Below are positions 1,886-37,251 of a stretch of 64,000 bases of DNA, piece by piece. The number at the start of each line of letters is the position of its first letter. Position 1 is the stretch's first letter. The notes below the pieces were generated by a model, which was not told where the DNA came from, did not search any database, and worked only from the letters and a program-made list of their open reading frames with translations. The DNA comes from a virus: positions 1 through 64,000 of IMG/VR virus record IMGVR_UViG_3300009129_001478. One strand, written 5' to 3'. The translations under genes were made by a program, and so were the position numbers.

Positions 1886-2026
1886 ATGCATCGTTTTTCT
1901 AAGAACGACCTTCTAGATTTGATCAAGGAGGTCGTTTCTTCTATTAAGGAAGACAGCAGACGTTGGCTTTTGGAATCTCCCGAACCCAGGGAGACCCTTA
2001 GCGAAAGCAAGGAACGTGAGTCCTAA
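1886..2026 (+). CDS. Small protein with LIKE-type leader (MHRFSKNDLLDLIKEVV...)
   Basis: 46-aa ORF below the track cutoff, fills the gap and shares the leader motif. Confidence 0.5.
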   Translation: MHRFSKNDLLDLIKEVVSSIKEDSRRWLLESPEPRETLSESKERES

Positions 2027-3036: not shown

Positions 3037-3330
3037 ATGTCACAATATGAAATTACAAAAACACGGTTGGCACAAATTATCAAAGAAGAGTATGAAGCTC
3101 TGAGTGGAGCCAATGCTTTGACCCGCACAATCCATCGCTGGGCAGAAGAGGCAAAGGATATTCCTGTACACTTGACTGTTGCCCGCATGATTGAGAATGG
3201 TGATCTTGATTCAGCCATTGAGACACTTGAGGCTATGCGCGACGTAGCCGACGCTCCGGTGGAAGAGCAGCAGAAAGGGCCTGTGAACTCTATTCGCGAC
3301 ATGATCCGACAAGAAGTGAAGAATTTGTAA
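3037..3330 (+). CDS. Small protein with IIKEE leader
   Basis: EITKTRLAQIIKEE; AAGGAG SD; CTATTTAT upstream. Confidence 0.6.
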   Translation: MSQYEITKTRLAQIIKEEYEALSGANALTRTIHRWAEEAKDIPVHLTVARMIENGDLDSAIETLEAMRDVADAPVEEQQKGPVNSIRDMIRQEVKNL

Positions 3331-5108: not shown

Positions 5109-6695
<1,587 letters not shown>

Positions 6696-21920: not shown

Positions 21921-22961
21921 ATGGCTGTTGACTTCAAAACCTTCGTTTCCTTGGCACCTGCCGTCAGTGCTGCTAAGCTTCCGGTTCTGCTCCGTGGTCG
22001 CCACGGCATTGGCAAGAGCCAGGTTGTTTACCAGATTGCTGCTGAGCTTGGTCTTCCAGTGGTTGAGCGCCGTGCCAGCCAGATGACTGAGGGAGATCTT
22101 GTCGGTCTTCCCAGCATTGAAGGAAACCGTACCACGTTCAATCCTCCCGATTGGTTCAAGCAATCCTGCGAAGAGGCAGTGGTTCTCTTCCTTGATGAAG
22201 TTGATCGTGCTACCCTTGAAGTTCGTCAAGGTATCTTTGAGTTGACTGACAGCCGTAAGCTGAACGGTCATAACCTTCACCCCAACACTCTGGTTTTCGC
22301 TGCCATCAACGGCGGTGAGCACGGTGCTAGCTATCAGGTCAATGAAATGGATCCTGCTGAGCTTGATCGCTGGAGTGTTTGGGATGTTGAGCCGACTACT
22401 GAAGACTGGTTGGCTTGGGGCAAGAACAATGTTGACGGTCTTGTTTGGGATTTCATCAATCAGAATCGCGCTCACCTTGAGCACAACGCTGACATTGAGC
22501 CCAACAAGCGTTATCCCAGCCGTCGTAGCTGGAAGCGTCTGAACGATGTGCTCGTCCAGGCTGAGCAACTGGAGGCTGGTCCTGCCATGTTCAACCTTGC
22601 TCAAAGCTTCGTCGGCTTTGAAGCTGCTGTTGCCCTGAATGACTTCGCCAAGAACTACGAGCGGGTTGTTACTGTTGATCAACTCCTCAATGGCGAGCGA
22701 GTTGAAGCCCTGGCTGCCTTCTCCTTGAATGAGCACTGCGCTTTGATTGAGAAGGTTGAAGCTGAAGAGACCTGCAAGACCGAACTGAACGATGATCAGA
22801 TCGGAAACCTTGCCAACTACTTCACGACTCTGCCCAGCGAAGCTGCCATGAAGTTGTGGGGCGTGATCAGCCAAGGCGGTGTCCAAGATAACGTTGTAAA
22901 ATTCCACGGTGCCAATGATGGCGCGGTCGGTGCTCACTTGAGCAAGATCCTGGGAGCCTAA
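21921..22961 (+). CDS. MoxR-like AAA+ ATPase
   Basis: GRHGIGKS Walker A, LFLDEVDR Walker B, DPAELDRW, PSRRSW. Confidence 0.9.
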   Translation: MAVDFKTFVSLAPAVSAAKLPVLLRGRHGIGKSQVVYQIAAELGLPVVERRASQMTEGDLVGLPSIEGNRTTFNPPDWFKQSCEEAVVLFLDEVDRATLEVRQGIFELTDSRKLNGHNLHPNTLVFAAINGGEHGASYQVNEMDPAELDRWSVWDVEPTTEDWLAWGKNNVDGLVWDFINQNRAHLEHNADIEPNKRYPSRRSWKRLNDVLVQAEQLEAGPAMFNLAQSFVGFEAAVALNDFAKNYERVVTVDQLLNGERVEALAAFSLNEHCALIEKVEAEETCKTELNDDQIGNLANYFTTLPSEAAMKLWGVISQGGVQDNVVKFHGANDGAVGAHLSKILGA

Positions 22962-26722: not shown

Positions 26723-27070
26723 ATGATCTATAAGTCACTGTTTTTGCTTATATTTGCAAATATATTCAATCAAGCATACCAACTTGAATATATTACATGT
26801 CCAAAATATGTTCCGGGTACTAATCAACTTTTGCCGGAAGGGGTCGACCTTTCACCGGAATTGGAGTTGATGAATCGGGTTCGGTGCTATTGTGAAGTAG
26901 TAAAAGCTAAAGAGCGGGAGTGTCTTGCTCGTCATGTGCCGGCAAATGTGTGCAAATCGCGAACCAATGCTTGGGTTGAGGATAATCTGAAACTAAAAGA
27001 GGAGGCTTCTCCTTATAATAACTTTGCACCTCTTCCTAAACGAGATAGGATGATTAATGTTGAGCCGTAG
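26723..27070 (+). CDS. Secreted Cys-containing protein
   Basis: Signal-like N-terminus; AAGGAG SD. Confidence 0.5.
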   Translation: MIYKSLFLLIFANIFNQAYQLEYITCPKYVPGTNQLLPEGVDLSPELELMNRVRCYCEVVKAKERECLARHVPANVCKSRTNAWVEDNLKLKEEASPYNNFAPLPKRDRMINVEP

Positions 27071-27461
27071 AGGCATGACGCTTCTTATAGTATTGGTGAT
27101 GAGTGCATTTATCGGTATAAGTGCAATGTTATTATTTTCTACCGTTAATATGGAAATGATGATTGCCGGCAATACACGGCGTATAAATCAAGCAAAAATT
27201 TCCGCGACGAGTGGCTTGAACCACTTTATTGCTCTTGGTTTAACTTACGACACGCTTAGAGAGCAGGCTGGCGACCTGCAAACTTTACAGATCTTGCCCG
27301 AGACCCAACTTGGGGCTAAGACTTCCTACGAGGTAAAAGTTCATTTTTATCCCCGTCTAAATGAGAGGCGATATGTGGTGGAAAGTATAGGCTACTACAA
27401 GAAAGCAGACAAGGTTATTTCACTGCACCCGATTAAAGCCCTTTTCGAAGGCGAAGAATAA
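27057..27461 (+). CDS. PilX-like minor pilin with class III signal peptide
   Basis: RRG|MTLLIVLV hydrophobic helix, MIAGN.R, A.SGL, Y.VESIG. Confidence 0.65.
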   Translation: MLSRRGMTLLIVLVMSAFIGISAMLLFSTVNMEMMIAGNTRRINQAKISATSGLNHFIALGLTYDTLREQAGDLQTLQILPETQLGAKTSYEVKVHFYPRLNERRYVVESIGYYKKADKVISLHPIKALFEGEE

Positions 27462-27606
27462 AAAGAAAACTAGTTATAATACGCAGGAGCATAGATAATG
27501 ATCACAAAAGATGCACTTTGGAAACAAATTTGTCTAGGATTGAAAGATCATGCACGATCAGAAAAACTAACTGCGACCGTAATGAAACGTATTAGGAGAC
27601 TCAAAA

Positions 27607-27906
27607 ATGAAGATCAAAAGATCACAACTAGCAAAGCTGATCAGTGAAGTAATTCTCAAGTCTAGGCTTATAAAAGAAGAGCTTACGGATGAAGAAGCTC
27701 GCATCAGCGCCGCGCTTGAGGCTGATGCCGATTGGTTCAACACTTTAGACCGTGACTCGCGAGAAACAGAAGGAAAAATATATTCCGATGCCGATGCTCG
27801 CCTTGAAGAACTGGAGCACTTGATAAAGGATCTGATTTTTTTGAAAAAAACCAAAGAGCTAAAAGCGGTGCTTAAAAACTACCTTGGACAAATAGGAGGA
27901 TTTTAA
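27607..27906 (+). CDS. Leader-motif protein
   Basis: MKIKRSQLAKLISE...LIKEE. Confidence 0.6.
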   Translation: MKIKRSQLAKLISEVILKSRLIKEELTDEEARISAALEADADWFNTLDRDSRETEGKIYSDADARLEELEHLIKDLIFLKKTKELKAVLKNYLGQIGGF

Positions 27907-28320
27907 ATGAAGATCGCCAAGTCTCAACTACGACAAATTATTAAAGAAGCCATCAATGTGAAGCTCCAAGGGGCAGACATGGCTCATGATTACAAGAAGT
28001 GGGCAGTTCATGACCACGGTGCTGATGATTGGCGTGACGAGGCTGCCCTGGATGCATATGCGGCGCACATGAATCTAAGTCCCTGCTCTCTTCACGACTT
28101 GAAGGCTACTCTTGGAATGCTAGGTGAGGCTAAGATTGTTGAAGAAGGAAAGTGTCCAGAGGATGGCTGCGTTCAAAAGAGAGAAAAAGGATGGGTAGTC
28201 ATTTCTAATAAAACTGGCGAGTGTTGGGGACGAAGCAAGAAGAAGGGTGGCGAATGCACCTACTACGATTCCCGAGCAGATGCCGAAGGGGCTCTTGATG
28301 CCTACCATGCCGGAAGATAA
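27907..28320 (+). CDS. Leader-motif protein
   Basis: MKIAKSQLRQIIKE. Confidence 0.6.
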   Translation: MKIAKSQLRQIIKEAINVKLQGADMAHDYKKWAVHDHGADDWRDEAALDAYAAHMNLSPCSLHDLKATLGMLGEAKIVEEGKCPEDGCVQKREKGWVVISNKTGECWGRSKKKGGECTYYDSRADAEGALDAYHAGR

Positions 28321-28322
28321 TA

Positions 28323-28556
28323 ATGAAAGTTACCAAATCGCAGCTACGAAAAGCTATCAAAGAGACCTTAAATAAGATTATCAACGAGTCCGAAAAGGGT
28401 GACCCATACGCTTATCTTAAGAAATCCCCACAAAAGAAATATCGTCAGTCATTCATAGACATGATCAAAAAACTGGCAAAAGGTCCAATAAAAAATACGG
28501 AACCCTATACAGAGAAACCAACTGTTGGTAAATCTGGACCTGCGGGATCGCCCTAA
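28323..28556 (+). CDS. Leader-motif protein
   Basis: MKVTKSQLRKAIKE...IINE. Confidence 0.6.
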   Translation: MKVTKSQLRKAIKETLNKIINESEKGDPYAYLKKSPQKKYRQSFIDMIKKLAKGPIKNTEPYTEKPTVGKSGPAGSP

Positions 28557-28595
28557 ATAAATCGGAAACTATATAATAGAAGGAGATTCCAAACA

Positions 28596-28994
28596 GTGAA
28601 GATTACAAAATCAAAATTAACCAAGTTGATCAAAGAAGAGGTGGCTAAAATTCTTAGAGAAAATAGCTCGGAAAGTTTGGCCGCTGCTGTTTTGAACAAT
28701 AGCGGTGTAGCCCCTGAAAAAGTAGCCGGCATCAACACCAAGGCTGTCTTTATTGACCTGTTTGATAGATTAGAAGACCTTTCTGATGGAACCCTCAAGC
28801 AAGGCATCGTATTATCAAAAATGGAAAGAGTTGCGGAAGCAGAATCAAACCCTGAGATTAGGAAATGGTTTATAGATGCTGTGAGCGATGCTTTAGGACA
28901 GGTTATAAGATCCGGATACAATATAGGTCCCAGCCCTAGCGGTATGGATATCCACAGTGCGTGGGATATAATCGTTGATCAAAATAGGTGGTAA
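28596..28994 (+). CDS. Leader-motif protein
   Basis: MKITKSKLTKLIKEE...ILRE. Confidence 0.6.
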   Translation: MKITKSKLTKLIKEEVAKILRENSSESLAAAVLNNSGVAPEKVAGINTKAVFIDLFDRLEDLSDGTLKQGIVLSKMERVAEAESNPEIRKWFIDAVSDALGQVIRSGYNIGPSPSGMDIHSAWDIIVDQNRW

Positions 28995-28998
28995 CACC

Positions 28999-29781
28999 AT
29001 GCACAGCATAGTAAGAAATTGGATAAAATATATTAACGAGGGTATTACTGTCCATGTTGATGTTGATGTTCCTTTTTCTTTTGAGCCTCACACAAAATTG
29101 AACAAAGACTTCTGGAATCAGCCGGGAGATAAATTAGATCCTGAGATTCGGCAGAAGCTTTTAGAGATTGCCACAGACTTCATTGAGAGCGGTCAAGGCG
29201 CGGATGCTCCTTTGCAAGATATTACATTTACAGGGTCACTTGCGAACTTCAATTACTCACGCTTCTCAGATGTGGACCTTCATGTGCTTTTTGATTTTTC
29301 CGACATAAATGAGGACGAACAATTGGTCCGTGATTATTTCATGGCTACTAAATCTGTTTGGAACAATGCCCACGACATTACAATGTTGGGCTACGAAGTT
29401 GAGATCTATGGACAGGATTCCAGAGAGCCTCACGTTGCCTCCGGGCTTTATTCCATTTTGAATGATGAGTGGATTGTGAAACCTGATCGCGAGGACCCTC
29501 AGATTGACAATCGTGATATCCAACTAAAAGCAGCAGCGATTGAGGATCAGATTGATCGTGTGGTTGCTCTTTATGAAGAAGGCAAGTATAAAGAGGCTAT
29601 TTCCGCGGCTGACAGAGTGAAGGCAAAAATTAAAAGATTTCGTCAAACTGGTCTAGAGACAGTAGGCGAATATTCCGTAGAGAATTTAGCTTTCAAAACA
29701 CTTAGAAGAAACGGATATCTTGGCATCCTATCCGATACAAAAACCAACGCGTATGACAAAATGATGTCCGTAGAGGACTAG
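28999..29781 (+). CDS. Pol-beta superfamily nucleotidyltransferase
   Basis: FTGS...SDVDLHV...VEIY; GEYSVENLAFKTLRR. Confidence 0.75.
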   Translation: MHSIVRNWIKYINEGITVHVDVDVPFSFEPHTKLNKDFWNQPGDKLDPEIRQKLLEIATDFIESGQGADAPLQDITFTGSLANFNYSRFSDVDLHVLFDFSDINEDEQLVRDYFMATKSVWNNAHDITMLGYEVEIYGQDSREPHVASGLYSILNDEWIVKPDREDPQIDNRDIQLKAAAIEDQIDRVVALYEEGKYKEAISAADRVKAKIKRFRQTGLETVGEYSVENLAFKTLRRNGYLGILSDTKTNAYDKMMSVED

Positions 29782-29783
29782 TT

Positions 29784-30908
29784 GTGAAAAATCATTTTGA
29801 CTCATGGCGGAAGTTCGTTATCAAAGAGGGGTTATCTGATGTCTTGTGGCATCACACCCAACTTTATAGATTGGCTGATGCCCTAAAAGACAATCGTTTT
29901 CTTACGTCTGGAGCTTTTACCAAGCCTGATACCGAAGGAGAACACGGCAAAGGCAAGATGTATTATATATCCACAACAAGGACACCATCTATTTCTTATG
30001 GGGCTTTCAGTAGTCGCCATCCTTATGGTGCTGTTCTCCAGCTTGATGGTAGAAAATTAGGACAACGTTTCAAGGGTATGCCAATAGATTACTGGTCTTC
30101 AAAAGACTATGGATCCTCTAAAAAATCAGCTAAAATAGGGAAGACTTTTTATTCTCCGACTGATGACGATGTATATGAAGCAGAAGATCGCATCGTAACT
30201 GATAAACCTTTTATTGAGGACGCTGACAAATATATAACTGCTGTTCATATCGCCCTGCCTCTTTACGATACCCGCACTACAGACTGGAAAACTGGGGAAT
30301 TTGAACTCGTCAATAAGTCTCAGCTTAGGTTTGCTGATTATCACTATGGCAGAAAAGTGGTTGAAATGTTAGAAGACAAGGGTATACCCTTTTATATTCA
30401 TGTCAATCCCAAAACTTGGATGACACTTGGTGTCTCTAAAGATAAGGCACTAACAAGCTGGAAACAATTTGAACAGGCTCTCAACGAATCAGAAACAGAA
30501 CTTGAAAAAATCCCCAAAGACGGCTTTAAAGAAATAGCTGATGGTCCCGGTTATGGTACAGATGAATTGCGAATGTTTGCGTTGGCAGCAGAAGCAATCC
30601 TCAAAGGCGAAGAAAAAATGCCAGAGGAGTTGATCACTGGTGACAGCGAAGACGGCCATACAAGCGAACGAAACAGAAGAAGAAAAGCTAAACAATTCTT
30701 TCATCAACTTGCGAAGCATCCTACAGCCGCAGTAGAAGGTATAAAGAACGCTTTACATAACAGTAGTTCTAAACCTGCATCCCGAGATGCTTTGGAAAAC
30801 CTAGCTTCATTAATGAGGAGTGTCGGCAAAAAAGATATTTACAGTTTTGCTGACTATTTAATGAAGGTTTATAAAGAGAACCACCCTGAAGGGGAAACGT
30901 ATTACTAA
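29784..30908 (+). CDS. Putative ADP-ribosyltransferase-fold protein
   Basis: LWHHT, YISTTR, LQLDGRKL, YEAEDR spacing resembles the ART core; inference. Confidence 0.45.
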   Translation: MKNHFDSWRKFVIKEGLSDVLWHHTQLYRLADALKDNRFLTSGAFTKPDTEGEHGKGKMYYISTTRTPSISYGAFSSRHPYGAVLQLDGRKLGQRFKGMPIDYWSSKDYGSSKKSAKIGKTFYSPTDDDVYEAEDRIVTDKPFIEDADKYITAVHIALPLYDTRTTDWKTGEFELVNKSQLRFADYHYGRKVVEMLEDKGIPFYIHVNPKTWMTLGVSKDKALTSWKQFEQALNESETELEKIPKDGFKEIADGPGYGTDELRMFALAAEAILKGEEKMPEELITGDSEDGHTSERNRRRKAKQFFHQLAKHPTAAVEGIKNALHNSSSKPASRDALENLASLMRSVGKKDIYSFADYLMKVYKENHPEGETYY

Positions 30909-31297
30909 TGAAACTTACAAAAAACACGATTAGGGAACTCATCAAAGAAGAGTTATCCATAATCAAAGAAGCAGAGATTACGATACCCGATGAACAAGGA
31001 TTAGAAAAAGAGTATTCCAACATCCGCAAAGCGTTCCAGGCTGTCAGTAAACGAAATTCAAAACTTGACGGTGAATTATTAGGAAAACAATTACAAGCCG
31101 CTATTATTGAATATAAACAAGAAATAAGAGATATTAGGGAAGTTGTTTCACAGTTAGATAATTGGAGAAGACTTTTAAAAAATACTCAAGATCTATTCTT
31201 TTATGTAACCAGGGGTGGTATGGGACAAGACTCAAGCCTCAAAGAGCCAAAATTCAGAGAAATGTCTGATGAGCCTCTAGATCCCTATGGAGAATAA
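30908..31297 (+). CDS. Leader-motif coiled-coil protein
   Basis: MKLTKNTIRELIKEELSIIKE. Confidence 0.6.
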   Translation: MKLTKNTIRELIKEELSIIKEAEITIPDEQGLEKEYSNIRKAFQAVSKRNSKLDGELLGKQLQAAIIEYKQEIRDIREVVSQLDNWRRLLKNTQDLFFYVTRGGMGQDSSLKEPKFREMSDEPLDPYGE

Positions 31298-31345
31298 ATC
31301 CAACAATCTCGCAAGACGGTTTTTTATTATAAGGAAACAAATAAA

Positions 31346-31762
31346 ATGAAACTTACAAAAACACAACTACGAAACCTTATCAAAGAAGAAATAAAAAATA
31401 TCAACGAAGGGTCCATGATGCGACCCCGTGCAAGAGATATGTTTGGTAAGACAGTTTATTGGCGCGATCTTATTGAAATCAAAAAGGTTACCAAAACAGG
31501 TAGAGAAAAAATTGATTTTGAAAGGATTATCAATTCTGGAGTAATTGATAAACCAAGCGAGGATTATCCCGATGGTGGACTTCCCGGTTATAGGGAAACT
31601 CGTGAGCCTTTGCTCCGCTCTGATCAACCCATTATTGTCACAATGGAAGACGGCGATAAACAGCGCTTCAAATCCAACGGACAAGAAATCACTCTATTGG
31701 ATCTGCTGGGTGATGATGAAGTCGCAGATTTGATGGCTTCGGGTGATATAGAACAACTATAA
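31346..31762 (+). CDS. Leader-motif protein
   Basis: MKLTKTQLRNLIKEEIKNINE. Confidence 0.6.
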   Translation: MKLTKTQLRNLIKEEIKNINEGSMMRPRARDMFGKTVYWRDLIEIKKVTKTGREKIDFERIINSGVIDKPSEDYPDGGLPGYRETREPLLRSDQPIIVTMEDGDKQRFKSNGQEITLLDLLGDDEVADLMASGDIEQL

Positions 31763-31813
31763 GCATCTCAAATAGGCTCTGAATAAAACTACTTATTACG
31801 GAGTCTATATTAT

Positions 31814-32998
31814 ATGAGTACTTTCAAAGAGCATAAAACAATAGCCGACCGCGCAGCGGGGGATAGAACCCGTCACCGTCAAAAAATTGAAAAGGCTATA
31901 AAAGAAAGTATCAAAGATGTTGTAGCCGAAGAAAGTATCATCGGACAAAGCGGAAAAAAGAAGATTAGAATTCCCGTAAAAGGGATTAAAGAACACCGCT
32001 TTGTTTATGGAAACAACGAAAAAAACAAACGTGTTGGTTCTGCTGAAGGTATTGATGTCAAAGAGGGTCAAAGAATTGGCAGCAAGCGACGCCAACGAGG
32101 CCCAGGTGACGAAAAAGCAGGGAATAAGCCCGGCAAAGAATCTTATGAAATAGAAATGTCATTAGAGGAACTGGCTGAATATTTATTCTCCGACCTCAAT
32201 TTGCCTGATTTAGAAAAGAAGCGTTTCAAATTTATCACCGAAGAAAAAATGAAACGGAAGGGCAAGAGACCATATGGGATCCGCCCACGTTTGTCAAAAA
32301 AAGAAACGATCATACAAAAAATCAGAAGAAAAAAGGCTGCGATCAAGGCAGGGACCCATGATCCAGAGGATGATGAGCGGTTTACATTTCATGAAAGTGA
32401 TTTACGCTACAAACATATTGCACCCGTTCAAAAAGAAAATACTACAGCGGTTATCTTTTTTGTAATGGATGTTTCGGGATCCATGACAACCACTAAAAAA
32501 TTCTTAGCAAGAAGCTTCTTCTTCTTATTGTATCAGTTCCTCAATCATCGTTATTCTGCCGTAGATGTGGTTTTTGTTTCACACACCGCTGAAGCAAAAG
32601 AAGTTAACGAAGAACAATTTTTCACACAAGTTCCCAGCGGAGGAACACTTGTTTCTACCGGGCTAAGAAAAGTACAAAAAATTATTGACAAAAGGTATCA
32701 TCCAAATAATTGGAATATTTATACGTTCTATTGTGGTGATGGGGATAATTGGGGAGTTGATAATAAAGAGGCAATTCAGGCGTTCAGAGAACTCAAAGAG
32801 ATAAACCAAATGATGTGTTATACCGAAATAGGTGAAATAAGAGCCTTTAGTAGAAATTTGTTTTATGAACTAGAAACCGAAAAAAGGCTTTGGGATTGGG
32901 TAGATCTCGTAGTTGATAATTCTTTTAAAAAAATTAGACTTACGAATCATAATGACATTTGGTCGTCTTTCAAAAAACTGTTTGGAGCGAAAAACTAA
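31814..32998 (+). CDS. yeaH: YeaH/YhbH (DUF444) VWA-like protein
   Basis: DRTRH, DLRY, MDVSGSM, GGT.VS, WNIY...GDGDNW. Confidence 0.9.
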   Translation: MSTFKEHKTIADRAAGDRTRHRQKIEKAIKESIKDVVAEESIIGQSGKKKIRIPVKGIKEHRFVYGNNEKNKRVGSAEGIDVKEGQRIGSKRRQRGPGDEKAGNKPGKESYEIEMSLEELAEYLFSDLNLPDLEKKRFKFITEEKMKRKGKRPYGIRPRLSKKETIIQKIRRKKAAIKAGTHDPEDDERFTFHESDLRYKHIAPVQKENTTAVIFFVMDVSGSMTTTKKFLARSFFFLLYQFLNHRYSAVDVVFVSHTAEAKEVNEEQFFTQVPSGGTLVSTGLRKVQKIIDKRYHPNNWNIYTFYCGDGDNWGVDNKEAIQAFRELKEINQMMCYTEIGEIRAFSRNLFYELETEKRLWDWVDLVVDNSFKKIRLTNHNDIWSSFKKLFGAKN

Positions 32999-34314
32999 TG
33001 GCTGATTGGTCGGTGGAAGAATTACAAGATTGGGATAACAAGATTTGTAAGTTGGGCAAAGAGCTTCAGCTTGATTGGTATCCTATATCTTATGAAATTT
33101 GTGATTATAAAGAAATGATAGGACATATGGCTTATTCCGGACTACCCACTCATTACAGACACTGGTCGTATGGGAAATCATTTGATAGGATCCAAACAGA
33201 ATATAATTTGGGAATGTCGGGTCTTCCATACGAGATGATTATTAATTCCAACCCCAGTATTGCGTATTTGATGACTGAGAATCCAATGTCAACTCACATA
33301 CTTACAATGGCACACTGTGTTGGACATAGTGATTTTTTCAAGAACAATCGTATGTTCTCCGAAACAAGAGCCGACACGGCAATTGATCGTTTTAAAGCCG
33401 CCGGCAAACGCGTTAAAAAATACATGGAGAACCCATCTATTGGCATAGATAAAGTTGAGAAGATTTTAGATTCATGCCATGCGATCAGATATCAAGTCCC
33501 AAGAACACCAGGCGTTCAACGAAGAGATCATCGTAAACTAAAGGAATATTATAGGGATCTAATAATAAATGATAAAACGGGACGATGGGACGGATTTGAT
33601 TTGAATAAAATTCCTCTAGAACCTGATCAGAATCTTCTTGAATTCATAGCGGAACATAATCGTTTTCTAGAGCTTTGGGAGAAAGACTTGATAAATATTG
33701 TTTCGGCTGAATCATCTTATTTTGTCCCGCAGGCATTGACCAAAATTATGAATGAGGGCTGGGCAGTTCTTATCCACGAAAAAATAGTTAAAAGTTTGGA
33801 TATGCCAGATGATTACCACTTGGCTTTTATTCGTTTACATAATCAAGTAATTCGCCCCCATTTAGGACGAGTAAACCCCTACCACTTAGGTTATAAAATA
33901 TTTCGTCACATTGAGGAGAAATATGGGTTTGATGAATGTTTGCGCGCAAGGGAAACTCACAATGATGAAACTTTTATAAAATCTTATTTTGATCTTGAAA
34001 TGTGTAAAGATTTGAATTTATTTACCTATTCTATGGATCAGAGAGAGGGAGCAACAAAAATTAGAGATGTATCCGGGGAAGATAGTTGGAGAACTATTCG
34101 CGACGAGCTAATTAAGAATGTAGGACTTAATGCTGTTCCGGTTATCGTCGTAAAGGAATTGTTAAAGGATGGTACACTAATACTTGAACACGAACACGAC
34201 GGGAGAGATCTGGAGTTGTCAGAAGCTAATAAAGTTTTTGGACATATCAATGAACTCTGGTCCGGTAATATAAAGTTTACTACAATTATTGAAGACGAAA
34301 CTTGGGAGTTTTGA
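32998..34314 (+). CDS. spoVR: SpoVR/YcgB family protein
   Basis: GLPTHYRHWSYGK, YEMIINSNP, GHSDFFKNN, TKIMNEGWA, NPYHLG. Confidence 0.93.
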   Translation: MADWSVEELQDWDNKICKLGKELQLDWYPISYEICDYKEMIGHMAYSGLPTHYRHWSYGKSFDRIQTEYNLGMSGLPYEMIINSNPSIAYLMTENPMSTHILTMAHCVGHSDFFKNNRMFSETRADTAIDRFKAAGKRVKKYMENPSIGIDKVEKILDSCHAIRYQVPRTPGVQRRDHRKLKEYYRDLIINDKTGRWDGFDLNKIPLEPDQNLLEFIAEHNRFLELWEKDLINIVSAESSYFVPQALTKIMNEGWAVLIHEKIVKSLDMPDDYHLAFIRLHNQVIRPHLGRVNPYHLGYKIFRHIEEKYGFDECLRARETHNDETFIKSYFDLEMCKDLNLFTYSMDQREGATKIRDVSGEDSWRTIRDELIKNVGLNAVPVIVVKELLKDGTLILEHEHDGRDLELSEANKVFGHINELWSGNIKFTTIIEDETWEF

Positions 34315-34320
34315 TCCACC

Positions 34321-36264
34321 ATGGCAAAAGAAAATAAATCTGGAAAGTTTTTGAAGCTGGTTGAAAAACACCGGGAGAAAAAATCAGTTGATAAATTTCA
34401 AGGCACTTTAGAGGAATACCTCAAGCTAATTGAAGCAGACCCATCTATACCCATATTATCACACAAAAGGCTATATGATGTTCTTTCTGGAAATGGTATT
34501 ACTAGAATGTCTAAATCTGATTCACGCTGCAATAAATTATTCAGTGGCGAGGAAATTAGGACTTATGATTATTTCCAATCAAAATTCTTTGGAATGGAAA
34601 GATCGTTAGCTAAAATTATGAGATTTTTACGGTCAGCTTCCCTGAAGGGAGAAGAGAGCCGCCAGGTATTATTACTTCTAGGTCCTGTTGGTGCCGGCAA
34701 ATCTGCCCTAATGGAGCACATAAAATCAGCCCTGGAACAATGTGATCCTATGTATCATATTGAAGGTTGTCCAATCCATGAAGAACCTCTTCATTTGATT
34801 CCCCGCTCCTTGAGGGAAGAATTTCAAAGTATTTATAATATAAAAATAGAAGGTGATTTATGTCCAGTATGCCGGCATCGCCTAAAAGAAAAATTCAATA
34901 ATGACTATACAACAATGCCAATAGCCCAGTCTTCGTTTTCAGTTCGTGGGCGGCGAGGTGTAGGCGTTGTCCCACCGATGGATGCCAATAGTCAGGATGT
35001 TACAATTTTAGTTGGTAGTGAGGACATTTCTAAGTTAGATTTATATTCTGAAGATGATCCGCGAGTTTTATCTCTAAATGGTGCCTTCAATGTTGGTAAT
35101 CGTGGTATTGTAGAGTTTGTTGAGGTTTTCAAAAATGAGATTGAATTTCTTCACACTATGATCACAGCAACACAAGAAAAGGCTGTACCATCACCAGGCA
35201 AAGGTCCTATGATTTATTTTGATGGCGTTATCCTGGCTCACTGTAATGAGGCTGAGTGGAACAAATTCAAGTCGGAAAATACGAATGAAGCCATTCTTGA
35301 TCGTATTGTTCGTGTAAATGTACCCTATTGTTTGGAGGTTTCTGAAGAGCAAAAGATTTATGAAAAAATGCTAGGACTGTCTGACTTTGATGGTCATATC
35401 GCCCCTCATACACTTGAGATTGCTAGTATGTTTGCCGTTCTAAGTCGTCTGCATCCATCTAATAAGGTTGACCCACTGACAAAGATGAAGCTTTATGACG
35501 GCGAAGAGGTAATTGAAAAAGGACATGTCAAAAAAATAGATATTAAAGATCTTAGAGATGAAACCAGAGATGAAGGGATGACAGGAATTTCTACAAGATT
35601 CATTATGAAAGCTATTGATTCGTCTCTATCAGATAGTGATAAAAATATGGTAACTCCTATCTCTATCCGAGATGCACTCATTAAGCAAGTCAAGGATCAG
35701 ATTGTAGTAGAGGATGACAGAAACCGTTATCTTGATTTTTTAGGTAAGACTTTACATGATGAATATTTGAATATTCTAGAGAAGGAAATAACCAAAGCTT
35801 TTGTATCTGCCTATGATGAACAAGCAGAAGCTCTTTTCAACAATTATTTAGATCATGCAGAGGCATATGTGAATATGACCACGGTCAAAGATGTTGTAAC
35901 AAATGAAGAAATTTCTCCCGACGAACCATTCATGGTTTCTATTGAGGAACAAATCGCAATTGTTGGCACAGCCAAAGAAAACTTCAGAGTTGATATTACT
36001 GCCTTCATGTTTTCAAAGCTCCGCCGCGGAGAAAAAGTAGACTGGAAGAGTTATGCTCCTCTAAAAGAAGCCATTGAGAGTAAATTAACATCCTCAGTAA
36101 AAGAAATATCTCGCATTGTTACCAAATCTAAGAGTCGCGATAAAAAACAACAAGGAAAATATAACGAAATGGTTAAAACTCTGATGGATGAATATGGATA
36201 TAATGAAGATTCAGCCGAAGAAGTAATCAAGTTTGCTGCAAATAATCTGTGGAGAGATAGCTAA
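34321..36264 (+). CDS. prkA: PrkA/YeaG AAA-type serine protein kinase
   Basis: FFGME, LLGPVGAGKS, CPIHEEPL, NRGIVEFVE, EGMTGISTRF. Confidence 0.95.
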   Translation: MAKENKSGKFLKLVEKHREKKSVDKFQGTLEEYLKLIEADPSIPILSHKRLYDVLSGNGITRMSKSDSRCNKLFSGEEIRTYDYFQSKFFGMERSLAKIMRFLRSASLKGEESRQVLLLLGPVGAGKSALMEHIKSALEQCDPMYHIEGCPIHEEPLHLIPRSLREEFQSIYNIKIEGDLCPVCRHRLKEKFNNDYTTMPIAQSSFSVRGRRGVGVVPPMDANSQDVTILVGSEDISKLDLYSEDDPRVLSLNGAFNVGNRGIVEFVEVFKNEIEFLHTMITATQEKAVPSPGKGPMIYFDGVILAHCNEAEWNKFKSENTNEAILDRIVRVNVPYCLEVSEEQKIYEKMLGLSDFDGHIAPHTLEIASMFAVLSRLHPSNKVDPLTKMKLYDGEEVIEKGHVKKIDIKDLRDETRDEGMTGISTRFIMKAIDSSLSDSDKNMVTPISIRDALIKQVKDQIVVEDDRNRYLDFLGKTLHDEYLNILEKEITKAFVSAYDEQAEALFNNYLDHAEAYVNMTTVKDVVTNEEISPDEPFMVSIEEQIAIVGTAKENFRVDITAFMFSKLRRGEKVDWKSYAPLKEAIESKLTSSVKEISRIVTKSKSRDKKQQGKYNEMVKTLMDEYGYNEDSAEEVIKFAANNLWRDS

Positions 36265-36273
36265 GGCAACAAG

Positions 36274-37251
36274 ATGTCTAATTTTGCAGACAAGATTAAA
36301 ACTCTCAGAGATTTTGTCGGGAATACTCCATTAATCAAAATTATAGTAGATGTTGCCGGCAAAAATGTAGTAATTTATGCCAAATATGAAGCTTGGAGCT
36401 TCTCTGGAAGCATAAAAGACCGCATGGCCTTACAAATATTGCAAAGTGCAGAGAATTTATCACAATTTCACGAAGGTGATACCATAATAGAGGCTACGAG
36501 TGGCAATACTGGGATTGCTTTTGCTGCGATGGGAGCTTATTTGGGGAGTGAGGTTCATATTTACATGCCAAATTGGCTTTCTGAAGAGAGAAAATCTCTT
36601 TTAAGATTTTACGGGGCAAAATTGCACGAAATAAGCGAAAAAGATGGTGGATTTCTTAAATGTATAGAGCTAGCATCCAAAAAAAGTGAAAAAAAGGGCT
36701 TTTTCGGACCAAAACAGTTTACTAATGCATGGAATGTGTTTTCGCACATGAATTCAACAGCACCTGAACTCCATAAATGCCTTAGCGAACAAAACTTGCC
36801 TAAACTCGGCGCTTTTGTTGCAGGAGTCGGCACTGGGGGTACTATTATGGGTTTTCATCACTATTTCAACGACAGGGATGGTGATTTTACTGCTTTTCCG
36901 GTGTTTCCAGAGAATAATATTGACAGGGGACATAGAATTGAGGGTATAGGGGACAGTTTTATTCCCAAGATTTTAAATTTAGATGAATTGGGTAAAATTA
37001 TAAGAGTAAAAGACTCGGATGCTATAAATGTTGCAAGACAAATGAATAAACTAGGACTATCAGTAGGTATTTCATCAGGTGCTAATGTATTTGCAGCCGC
37101 GCTGAAAGCTTCAGAACTTCAAAATAACCTGACCGTCGCGACGGTTCTATGTGATGATAATAAGAAATACCTTTCTACTGATTTGTGTTCTGATAGTGTT
37201 GAGGAACTCTCAAGCGAAATAAAAATCAAAGATTTTATAAGGATTACTTGA
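36274..37251 (+). CDS. cysK: Cysteine synthase (PLP-dependent)
   Basis: VGNTPL, SGSIKDR, EATSGNTG, GVGTGGT, GISSGA. Confidence 0.88.
   Translation: MSNFADKIKTLRDFVGNTPLIKIIVDVAGKNVVIYAKYEAWSFSGSIKDRMALQILQSAENLSQFHEGDTIIEATSGNTGIAFAAMGAYLGSEVHIYMPNWLSEERKSLLRFYGAKLHEISEKDGGFLKCIELASKKSEKKGFFGPKQFTNAWNVFSHMNSTAPELHKCLSEQNLPKLGAFVAGVGTGGTIMGFHHYFNDRDGDFTAFPVFPENNIDRGHRIEGIGDSFIPKILNLDELGKIIRVKDSDAINVARQMNKLGLSVGISSGANVFAAALKASELQNNLTVATVLCDDNKKYLSTDLCSDSVEELSSEIKIKDFIRIT

Follow-up and report, generated by a model that had tools for sequence, protein, structure and literature searches.

The DNA analysed here, which we call the window, is the first 64 kb (64,000 nucleotides) of the 97,631-bp IMG/VR virus record IMGVR_UViG_3300009129_001478, a contig estimated to be 48% complete. 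Between positions 27607 and 31762 it encodes a cluster of proteins that begin with one of two short N-terminal leaders and that differ in the bodies behind them. The original prediction described six open reading frames (ORFs) in this cluster (27607, 27907, 28323, 28596, 30908 and 31346) as starting with MK[ILV]xKxxLxx[LI]IxE, and this motif, which we term the class-1 leader, can be read at the start of all six co-directional ORFs. Two genes for predicted enzymes (28999 and 29784) carry a second, class-2 leader. The spacing of the cluster is operon-like, with intergenic gaps of -1 to 51 nt, and a Shine-Dalgarno-like purine run lies upstream of five of the six class-1 ORFs, none being clear before 28323. 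A relative, G001, was found via the 374-aa protein encoded at 29784; it measures 178,630 bp, is 98% complete and aligns over 89% of the contig at 75.8% nucleotide identity.

We built a profile hidden Markov model (HMM) from 80 leaders and scanned the contig and G001 with it, along the lines that the original prediction had proposed. Matches were found only at start codons and above shuffled sequence: the contig gave 7 matches scoring 11.8-37.1 bits, every one of them on the + strand and in register with a start codon, and G001 gave 15, all at start codons on the coding strand, against a top score of 7.5 bits in five shuffled genomes. A strict regular expression applied in six frames to the 97.6-kb contig matched only the six leader N-termini and position 1892. 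Similar leaders had also been claimed at 3037 and 1886; the first proved to be a variant of the family, and the second was left out of it because its HMM score is below 8 bits, the LIKE core being all that it shares.

Table 1. Positions of the leader-bearing ORFs and of the other features discussed, in window coordinates unless another genome is named.
Feature	Position	Strand	Evidence and remarks
Class-1 leader ORF, 99 aa, orphan acidic body	27607..27906	+	leader HMM 26.6 bits at start codon; [LI]xE at residues 12 and 22; no match in Pfam or PHROG
Class-1 leader ORF, 137 aa, mosaic body	27907..28320	+	leader HMM 36.4 bits; first 57 body residues match G001 175167 (61%), C-terminal part matches leader ORF of another phage (L057)
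Class-1 leader ORF, 77 aa, sole basic body (isoelectric point 9.8)	28323..28556	+	leader HMM 34.5 bits; orthologue G001 174477, body identity 71%
Class-1 leader ORF, 132 aa, GTG start	28596..28994	+	leader HMM 11.8 bits from model position 2; ribosome-binding site AAGGAG upstream; second site ILRE at residues 19-22
Variant class-2 leader and predicted Pol-beta-type nucleotidyltransferase, 260 aa	28999..29781	+	family alignments, AlphaFold2 (AF2) model
Class-2 leader and predicted ADP-ribosyltransferase-fold enzyme, 374 aa, GTG start	29784..30908	+	orthologue alignments, AF2 model
Class-1 leader ORF, 129 aa	30908..31297	+	leader HMM 22.9 bits
Class-1 leader ORF, 138 aa	31346..31762	+	leader HMM 37.1 bits; metagenome orthologues at 55-88% identity; no counterpart at same position in G001
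Class-1 leader variant, 5-residue N-terminal extension, 97 aa	3037..3330	+	leader HMM 23.0 bits from model position 3; body matches L050 5298
ORF with leader-like LIKE core only, 45 aa, membership doubtful	1886..2020	+	leader HMM <8 bits; conserved in G001 at 22457
CTAGTTAT, claimed late promoter	27470..27477	+	intergenic copy, conserved in G001, overlaps TATAAT-like hexamer
Tandem gp23-type genes	L202/L212 (G006 about 139.3-143 kb); L204/L213 (G011 about 176.5-180.1 kb)		

The class-1 consensus is MK[ILV]TKxQLxx[IL]IKEE, on ORFs with a median length of 109 aa, of which only 2 of 96 have a Pfam match. No leader-ORF body in the window has a Pfam match at E <=0.01, and PHROG gave just two weak matches, whose function is not annotated; no pair of these bodies matches by BLASTP, which bears out the earlier claim that what follows the leader is unrelated from gene to gene. 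A set of 124 bodies fell into 104 BLASTP clusters, 91 of them singletons, and the information content of the leader alignment falls to background after residue 16-22. Homology to G001 and to a second relative, G002, breaks off at two leader boundaries, 27611 and 30955, the latter just past leader codon 16; beyond 30955 the body of the 30908 ORF differs from both relatives. The segments left unaligned are 27612-28316, 28541-29068 and 30956-31772, and the same conserved flanks enclose six class-1 cassettes in the window versus four in G002. Because homology breaks exactly at the leader boundaries, the leader DNA is probably a substrate for recombination.

The class-1 pattern has at least 120 matches in IMG/VR, and the leader profile retrieved 11,223 representative proteins at E <=0.001 among 1.84 billion; a word-indexed protein search with the leader region returned orthologues only and is uninformative on distribution. 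The best 150 of the 11,223 profile matches hold two or three leader copies each, with a copy at residues 1-3 in 141 of the 150. Within these 150, 112 of the 152 internal copies begin with Met, preceded by E at -3/-4 and K at -1. Since most internal copies thus have a Met and residues that look like a translated ribosome-binding site, the majority of multi-leader proteins probably stem from tandem leader genes that are fused in frame or were merged in gene calling, and they offer no argument against N-terminal placement of the leader. About a quarter of the internal copies begin with a residue other than Met and appear to be genuine internal copies. Two public representatives of 459-473 aa (P0027 and P0029) have three or four class-1 copies, several of them lacking Met, and look like multi-cargo chains.

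These observations bear on whether a peptide or a nucleic acid is conserved. The break of homology between relatives exactly at the leader boundaries would suit a nucleic-acid signal, such as an element for translation initiation or a site at which gene cassettes recombine, and so would the identity of the two copies of the capsid-targeting sequence (CTS) of T4 at 30 of 30 nucleotides. We regard such a signal as very improbable. Codon pairs for identical leader residues use different codons in 47% of cases, which argues for selection on the leader peptide and not on its DNA, and copies that do not begin with Met occur inside longer proteins. Given these two observations, recombination at the leader is more likely a by-product than a selected function.

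Class-2 leaders and the two enzymes

The second leader type had been described as W(I/R)K(Y/F)..EG on the ORFs at 28999 and 29784, and it is upheld by the orthologues of both, which carry MKxLLxEWRKFLKE[GE] at the aligned position. Most orthologues of the 374-aa protein begin MKLxxExWRKFLKEG, and nearly all members of the family of the 260-aa protein, which comprises more than 1,700 proteins, have a WRKFLKE[GE]-type N-terminus. The two copies in the window are diverged versions of this type, and their assignment to class 2 rests on the orthologue alignments because a narrow class-2 HMM gives no score to the N-terminus of either enzyme. An exact-pattern class-2 scan of IMG/VR returned 60 stretches, and some of these share a contig with class 1. 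The median length is 248 aa for class-2 ORFs versus 109 aa for class 1, and the Pfam domains found on class-2 cargo are HD, S-AdoMet lyase, GNAT, ART-PolyVal, tRNA-ligase phosphodiesterase, transglutaminase-like and AAT. The two leader classes show no significant relation to each other (hhalign E 0.13). We also considered the class-2 leader as a mimic of the capsid protein N-terminal LLxKWxK..LLEG, a likeness visible by eye, and dropped the idea because the class-2 HMM does not score the capsid protein.

By its active-site motif and predicted fold the 260-aa protein belongs to the Pol-beta-type nucleotidyltransferase superfamily. Its AF2 model, with a mean predicted local distance difference test (pLDDT) of 79.8, matches CD-NTases and aminoglycoside nucleotidyltransferases (ANT), the fold matches to CdnE and ANT enzymes being at E 6e-4 and weaker. 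Within the GS...DxD motif of the family G79, S80 and D93 are invariant and D91 is nearly so; Pfam NTP_transf_2 scores just 14 bits.

For the 374-aa protein an ADP-ribosyltransferase (ART) fold is supported by the AF2 model (mean pLDDT 76.9), in which residues ~9-216 match Tpt1/KptA tRNA 2'-phosphotransferases and DarT with Z 8-9.6. The best 25 structure-match rows all belong to the ART superfamily, and Foldseek gives probabilities of 0.97-0.99 but E of only about 3e-3. This protein has no Pfam match; among its orthologues an EAEDR block is invariant and a YYxSTxR block nearly invariant. One distant homologue of the ART body has no leader. In the models of both enzymes the leader appears as a low-confidence helix at residues 2-13, apart from the fold, with pLDDT <50 at residues 6-25 of the 260-aa protein and along helix 2-13 of the 374-aa protein.

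The two-enzyme cassette (29069-30955) is 89% identical to G001 and 85% to G002, versus ~76% for the rest of the genome, which suggests either recent exchange or stronger constraint.

Cleavage motif and head genes

Both leader classes end in the cleavage motif of T4 gp21, [LI]xE. The motif lies at residues 12-15 in 10 of 10 leader ORFs, against a background of 1 per 85 residues, and a second copy follows at residues 19-22 in 7 of the 10. The original prediction had pointed to such a second [LI]xE soon after the first, and we found it at residues 19-24 in the ORFs at 27607, 28323, 28596, 30908 and 31346. When codon 14 was left free in the pattern, 44 new loci gave Glu 66 times, Lys once and Asp never; for comparison, D/(D+E) in the bodies is 0.45. 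In T4, Asp at the position of the cleavage-site Glu blocks processing and not targeting (PMC9026906). The capsid proteins of every leader-bearing genome in which the gp23 gene was read have L[KR]E 23-36 residues before FPIVRRVF, and T4 gp23 is cut after LTE, ahead of the block homologous to FPIVRRVF.

The head module of G001 is of the T4 type, with a gp20 portal, an S77 protease, ribosomal protein S21, a scaffold-like protein of 359 aa and a gp23 capsid protein. Its protease, encoded at G001 70969-71571, shares 35% identity with T4 gp21, and the equivalents of the His and Ser residues are conserved. Among leader-bearing contigs of at least 60 kb, S77 was found in 13 of 19, including 3 of 3 of those at least 90% complete, and gp23 was found in 13 of 14 leader-bearing genomes; besides G001, 13 other leader-bearing genomes have T4-type head genes of this kind. 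The co-occurrence of leader and S77 has no discriminating negative control, because S77-like matches were also obtained in all four comparison phages (Molly, LR745206, Cr30 and S-CRM01).

Leader genes also adjoin the protease. In G001, G005 and G009 the protease gene is immediately preceded by a class-1 leader ORF, and 11 genomes encode, one to three genes downstream of the protease, a conserved protein of 124-148 aa that begins KxSxLKxLIKEC. Aligned by hhalign, the class-1 leader matches the N-terminus of this family over 21 columns with a probability of 93.5% (E 2e-7), compared with 0.5% and 0.15% in two control alignments. The family has no detectable relation to T4 gp67 or gp68. In all, G001 carries 15 class-1 and about 10 class-2 leader genes; its class-2 genes include a tandem array at 89-93 kb (one GNAT and one weak ART-PolyVal match), and one leader-bearing protein of 1868 aa has a NUDIX domain.

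Two further features of the head modules are recorded here in their own right. The ribosomal protein S21 gene (Pfam 33.6 bits) lies between protease and scaffold at L011:10238-10528 (G001 70238-70528, - strand), and Microcystis phage Mel-JY01 has an S21 gene at the same head-module position. Two giant leader-bearing phages, of 242 and 293 kb, have two tandem full-length gp23-type genes with near-identical N-terminal regions.

Proposed function of the leaders, and their surroundings

We think it probable, on the strength of the sequence comparisons above, that the leaders are an enlarged, two-class version of the T4 capsid-targeting sequence. The segment 27607-31762 would then be an island of variable cargo genes carried by a distant T4-type myophage, and the N-terminal amphipathic helix encoded by each gene would be a capsid-targeting propeptide by which the protein attaches to the scaffolding core while the prohead assembles. 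A gp21-family (S77) prohead protease would cleave [LI]xE behind its Glu, either at residue 14, at the second site at ~residues 21-24, or at both, and the mature protein, freed within the head, would exit with the DNA at infection. Class 1 would be the address of small orphan proteins, resembling the N-terminus of the conserved protein encoded beside the protease, and class 2 that of larger proteins, those with a recognisable domain being mostly enzymes; the ART-fold protein would be the counterpart of T4 Alt. The predicted cargo types (ART fold, nucleotidyltransferase, GNAT, ART-PolyVal, S-AdoMet lyase, HD and the NUDIX-bearing 1868-aa protein) fit injection with DNA.

The inference of a T4-type tag in the original prediction stood up in part. 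The analogy with T4 agreed with each of the sequence-level tests applied, namely the gp21-type protease in a relative, the [LI]xE motif, the leader genes beside the protease, the profile match to a conserved head-module protein and the cassettes, which vary as the IP genes of T4 do; it disagrees with a cargo that is mostly acidic. A more elaborate version is possible, and we put it forward tentatively: a two-address system in which the class-1 tag, copied from a conserved prohead-core protein, loads fast-evolving orphans and the second tag loads enzymes. The more than 11,000 tagged clusters would then be a catalogue of injected proteins, many of them probably undiscovered anti-defence inhibitors.

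Several observations weigh against the capsid-targeting reading. Acidic bodies make up seven of the eight in the cluster, with isoelectric points of 4.6-6.5. Leader position 15 is likewise devoid of Asp, so the absence of Asp at position 14 may partly reflect a helix preference, and the first site is mostly followed by Glu, versus the small residue usual in T4. The roughly 25 tagged genes of G001 are far above the handful in T4. On the window's own contig, a 48% fragment, there is no S77 match and the head genes are not present, so that the head module of this phage is inferred from its relatives; S77-like proteases occurred in every comparison phage tried, and the class-2 HMM is silent on the two enzymes, as described above. 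A tblastn search with two leader queries against 50,697 phage records matched only one, uncultured, record, and neither Flavobacterium phage immuto nor Microcystis phage Mel-JY01 contained a match to a degenerate leader pattern. Docking, cleavage, residence in the head, packaging and injection are all inferred from sequence.

Much of the same evidence could be read as cargo of a humbler kind. The small proteins might be loaded into the prohead through the leader as dispensable filling of the core or scaffold that, like T4 gp67/gp68, is cleaved into pieces and removed before the DNA is packaged, and not as effectors delivered to the host. The resemblance of the class-1 leader to the N-terminus of a conserved head-module protein would fit this, as would class-1 bodies that are small, mostly acidic and devoid of known domains (apart from the 2 of 96 noted above), several of which contain further internal [LI]xE sites; T4 core proteins are indeed cut into fragments that leave the head (PMC9026906). 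We nevertheless consider filler unlikely, since turnover between close relatives and the diversity of the bodies (104 clusters from 124) are unexpected for a structural component, and some class-2 cargo proteins are intact enzymes whose catalytic motifs are conserved.

Somewhat less likely still is that the leader is a functional helix unrelated to the capsid and kept on the mature protein, such as a handle for one shared partner of host or phage origin, a helix for oligomerisation or a tag that governs stability or degradation. A charged amphipathic shape serves many purposes, AF2 places a helix at residues 2-13 of both enzymes, the cluster lies among non-structural genes, beside yeaH/spoVR/prkA, and cleavage of the leader is so far a prediction. 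Such a helix leaves unexplained why [LI]xE is invariant, with Glu and never Asp, why leader genes abut the protease and match a head-module protein by profile, and why the leader is restricted to genomes with T4-type head genes.

The T4 CTS has been described on a few proteins of a single model phage, where IPI* (a restriction-endonuclease inhibitor) and Alt are examples of proteins carried in the virion. If the capsid-targeting reading of the leaders is true, an N-terminal motif alone would flag the virion-borne, first-acting proteins of many uncultured phages, which would lead straight to novel anti-defence proteins and to host-takeover enzymes, and the leaders would be natural tags for loading foreign proteins into capsids.

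The cluster had further been said to follow a late promoter, CTAGTTAT. This claim is not supported: CTAGTTAT has four copies on the + strand, whose settings are unrelated and mostly coding, so that it does not qualify as a recurrent promoter motif, TATAAATA shows no enrichment on the coding strand, and a scan for consensus promoters gave nothing above shuffles. An ORF of 49 aa (27498-27647), preceded by a good ribosome-binding site (AGGAG), runs in another frame into the start of the 27607 ORF, in a region conserved in G001. The conserved upstream flank of the island is a 134-aa ORF (27057-27461) whose product has a short basic start and then a hydrophobic segment, reminiscent of a pilin- or pseudopilin-like leader (no family search was made). 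Directly downstream of the cluster yeaH (DUF444), spoVR, prkA and a PALP-family (cysK-like) gene stand in a tight row (31814-37251), a bacterial stress/sporulation kinase module on a phage.

The contig is about half a genome of an uncultured T4-related phage. Its genes lie nearly all on the + strand and include a GroEL-type chaperonin gene (5109-6695; Cpn60_TCP1, 225 bits), a PhoH/PIN protein, glycosyltransferases and six tRNAs, with the baseplate and tail genes located past 64 kb. Judged by the capsid protein, the phages in culture that come nearest are Microcystis phage Mel-JY01, Flavobacterium phage immuto and Rhodothermus phage RM378. Immuto and Mel-JY01 have different leader-like N-termini of their own. 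In immuto a shared N-terminal motif, FxLxxFLxENKL...LKE, is found on three ORFs (L137:2730-4030, L137:10340-10567), one of which adjoins the prohead protease, so that leader variants specific to lineages appear to exist.

Comparison with known systems

Among the papers searched we found none that contains the motif strings or describes such leaders outside T4 and phiKZ-like phages, and none that ties capsid targeting to cyanophages or distant T4 relatives. The closest parallel is the T4 CTS (PMC9026906, PMC3012670). Like the leaders described here, it is short, N-terminal and found on otherwise unrelated proteins, starts with MK, ends in [LI]xE and occurs at variable loci (PMC9026906). The relatives of the phage studied here encode a gp21-family protease, gp20 and gp23 as T4 does, and one of the cargo proteins has a predicted ART fold, as has T4 Alt. 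Unlike the 10-residue T4 sequence, the leaders here are 14-24 residues long and have no detectable homology to MKTYQEFIAE, with which T4 ipII and ipIII (NC_000866) both begin, followed by Ala. Scanned against T4 ipII, ipIII, gp67, gp68 and gp21-gp24, the leader HMM gave 0.9 bits for gp67, a negative score for gp22 and no match to ipII or ipIII, a comparison in which such short peptides afford little statistical power. The phage lineage here further differs in having two leader classes split by cargo size, ~25 tagged genes per genome versus about 4, and a leader that is shared with a conserved head-module protein; this system is known from sequence alone. T4 internal proteins are basic, whereas the cargo here is mostly acidic.

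In Synechococcus phage S-CRM01 (L220:941-2579) two ORFs upstream of a homologue of the nucleotidyltransferase begin MKKLDQFLTE and MKLFNQFFKE, N-termini that closely resemble the 10-residue T4 CTS.

The phiKZ-like giant phages share with the present system the processing after Glu of many head-internal proteins by a diverged gp21 homologue (substrates of phiKZ gp175 and SPN3US gp245), in whose propeptides several cleavage sites occur redundantly (PMC9026906, PMC10052503). The motif used there is S/A/G-x-E, and a portable leader with a single consensus is not described for these phages, whereas here one consensus occurs on thousands of proteins. The Dar proteins of P1, which is not a T4-type phage, are loaded by an ordered protein hierarchy and are not known to share a common clip-off tag. 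They resemble the proposed cargo in being anti-defence proteins that are loaded into the head at assembly and delivered with the DNA (PMC9024508, PMC12810830). Polyvalent proteins of phages and conjugative elements, the context of Pfam ART-PolyVal, likewise combine ART, NUDIX, acetyltransferase and nuclease-type domains that are thought to enter the host with the DNA. They fuse these domains in one giant chain, whereas in the system described here the domains mostly stand in separate genes, each with its own leader, save for the 1868-aa protein of G001.

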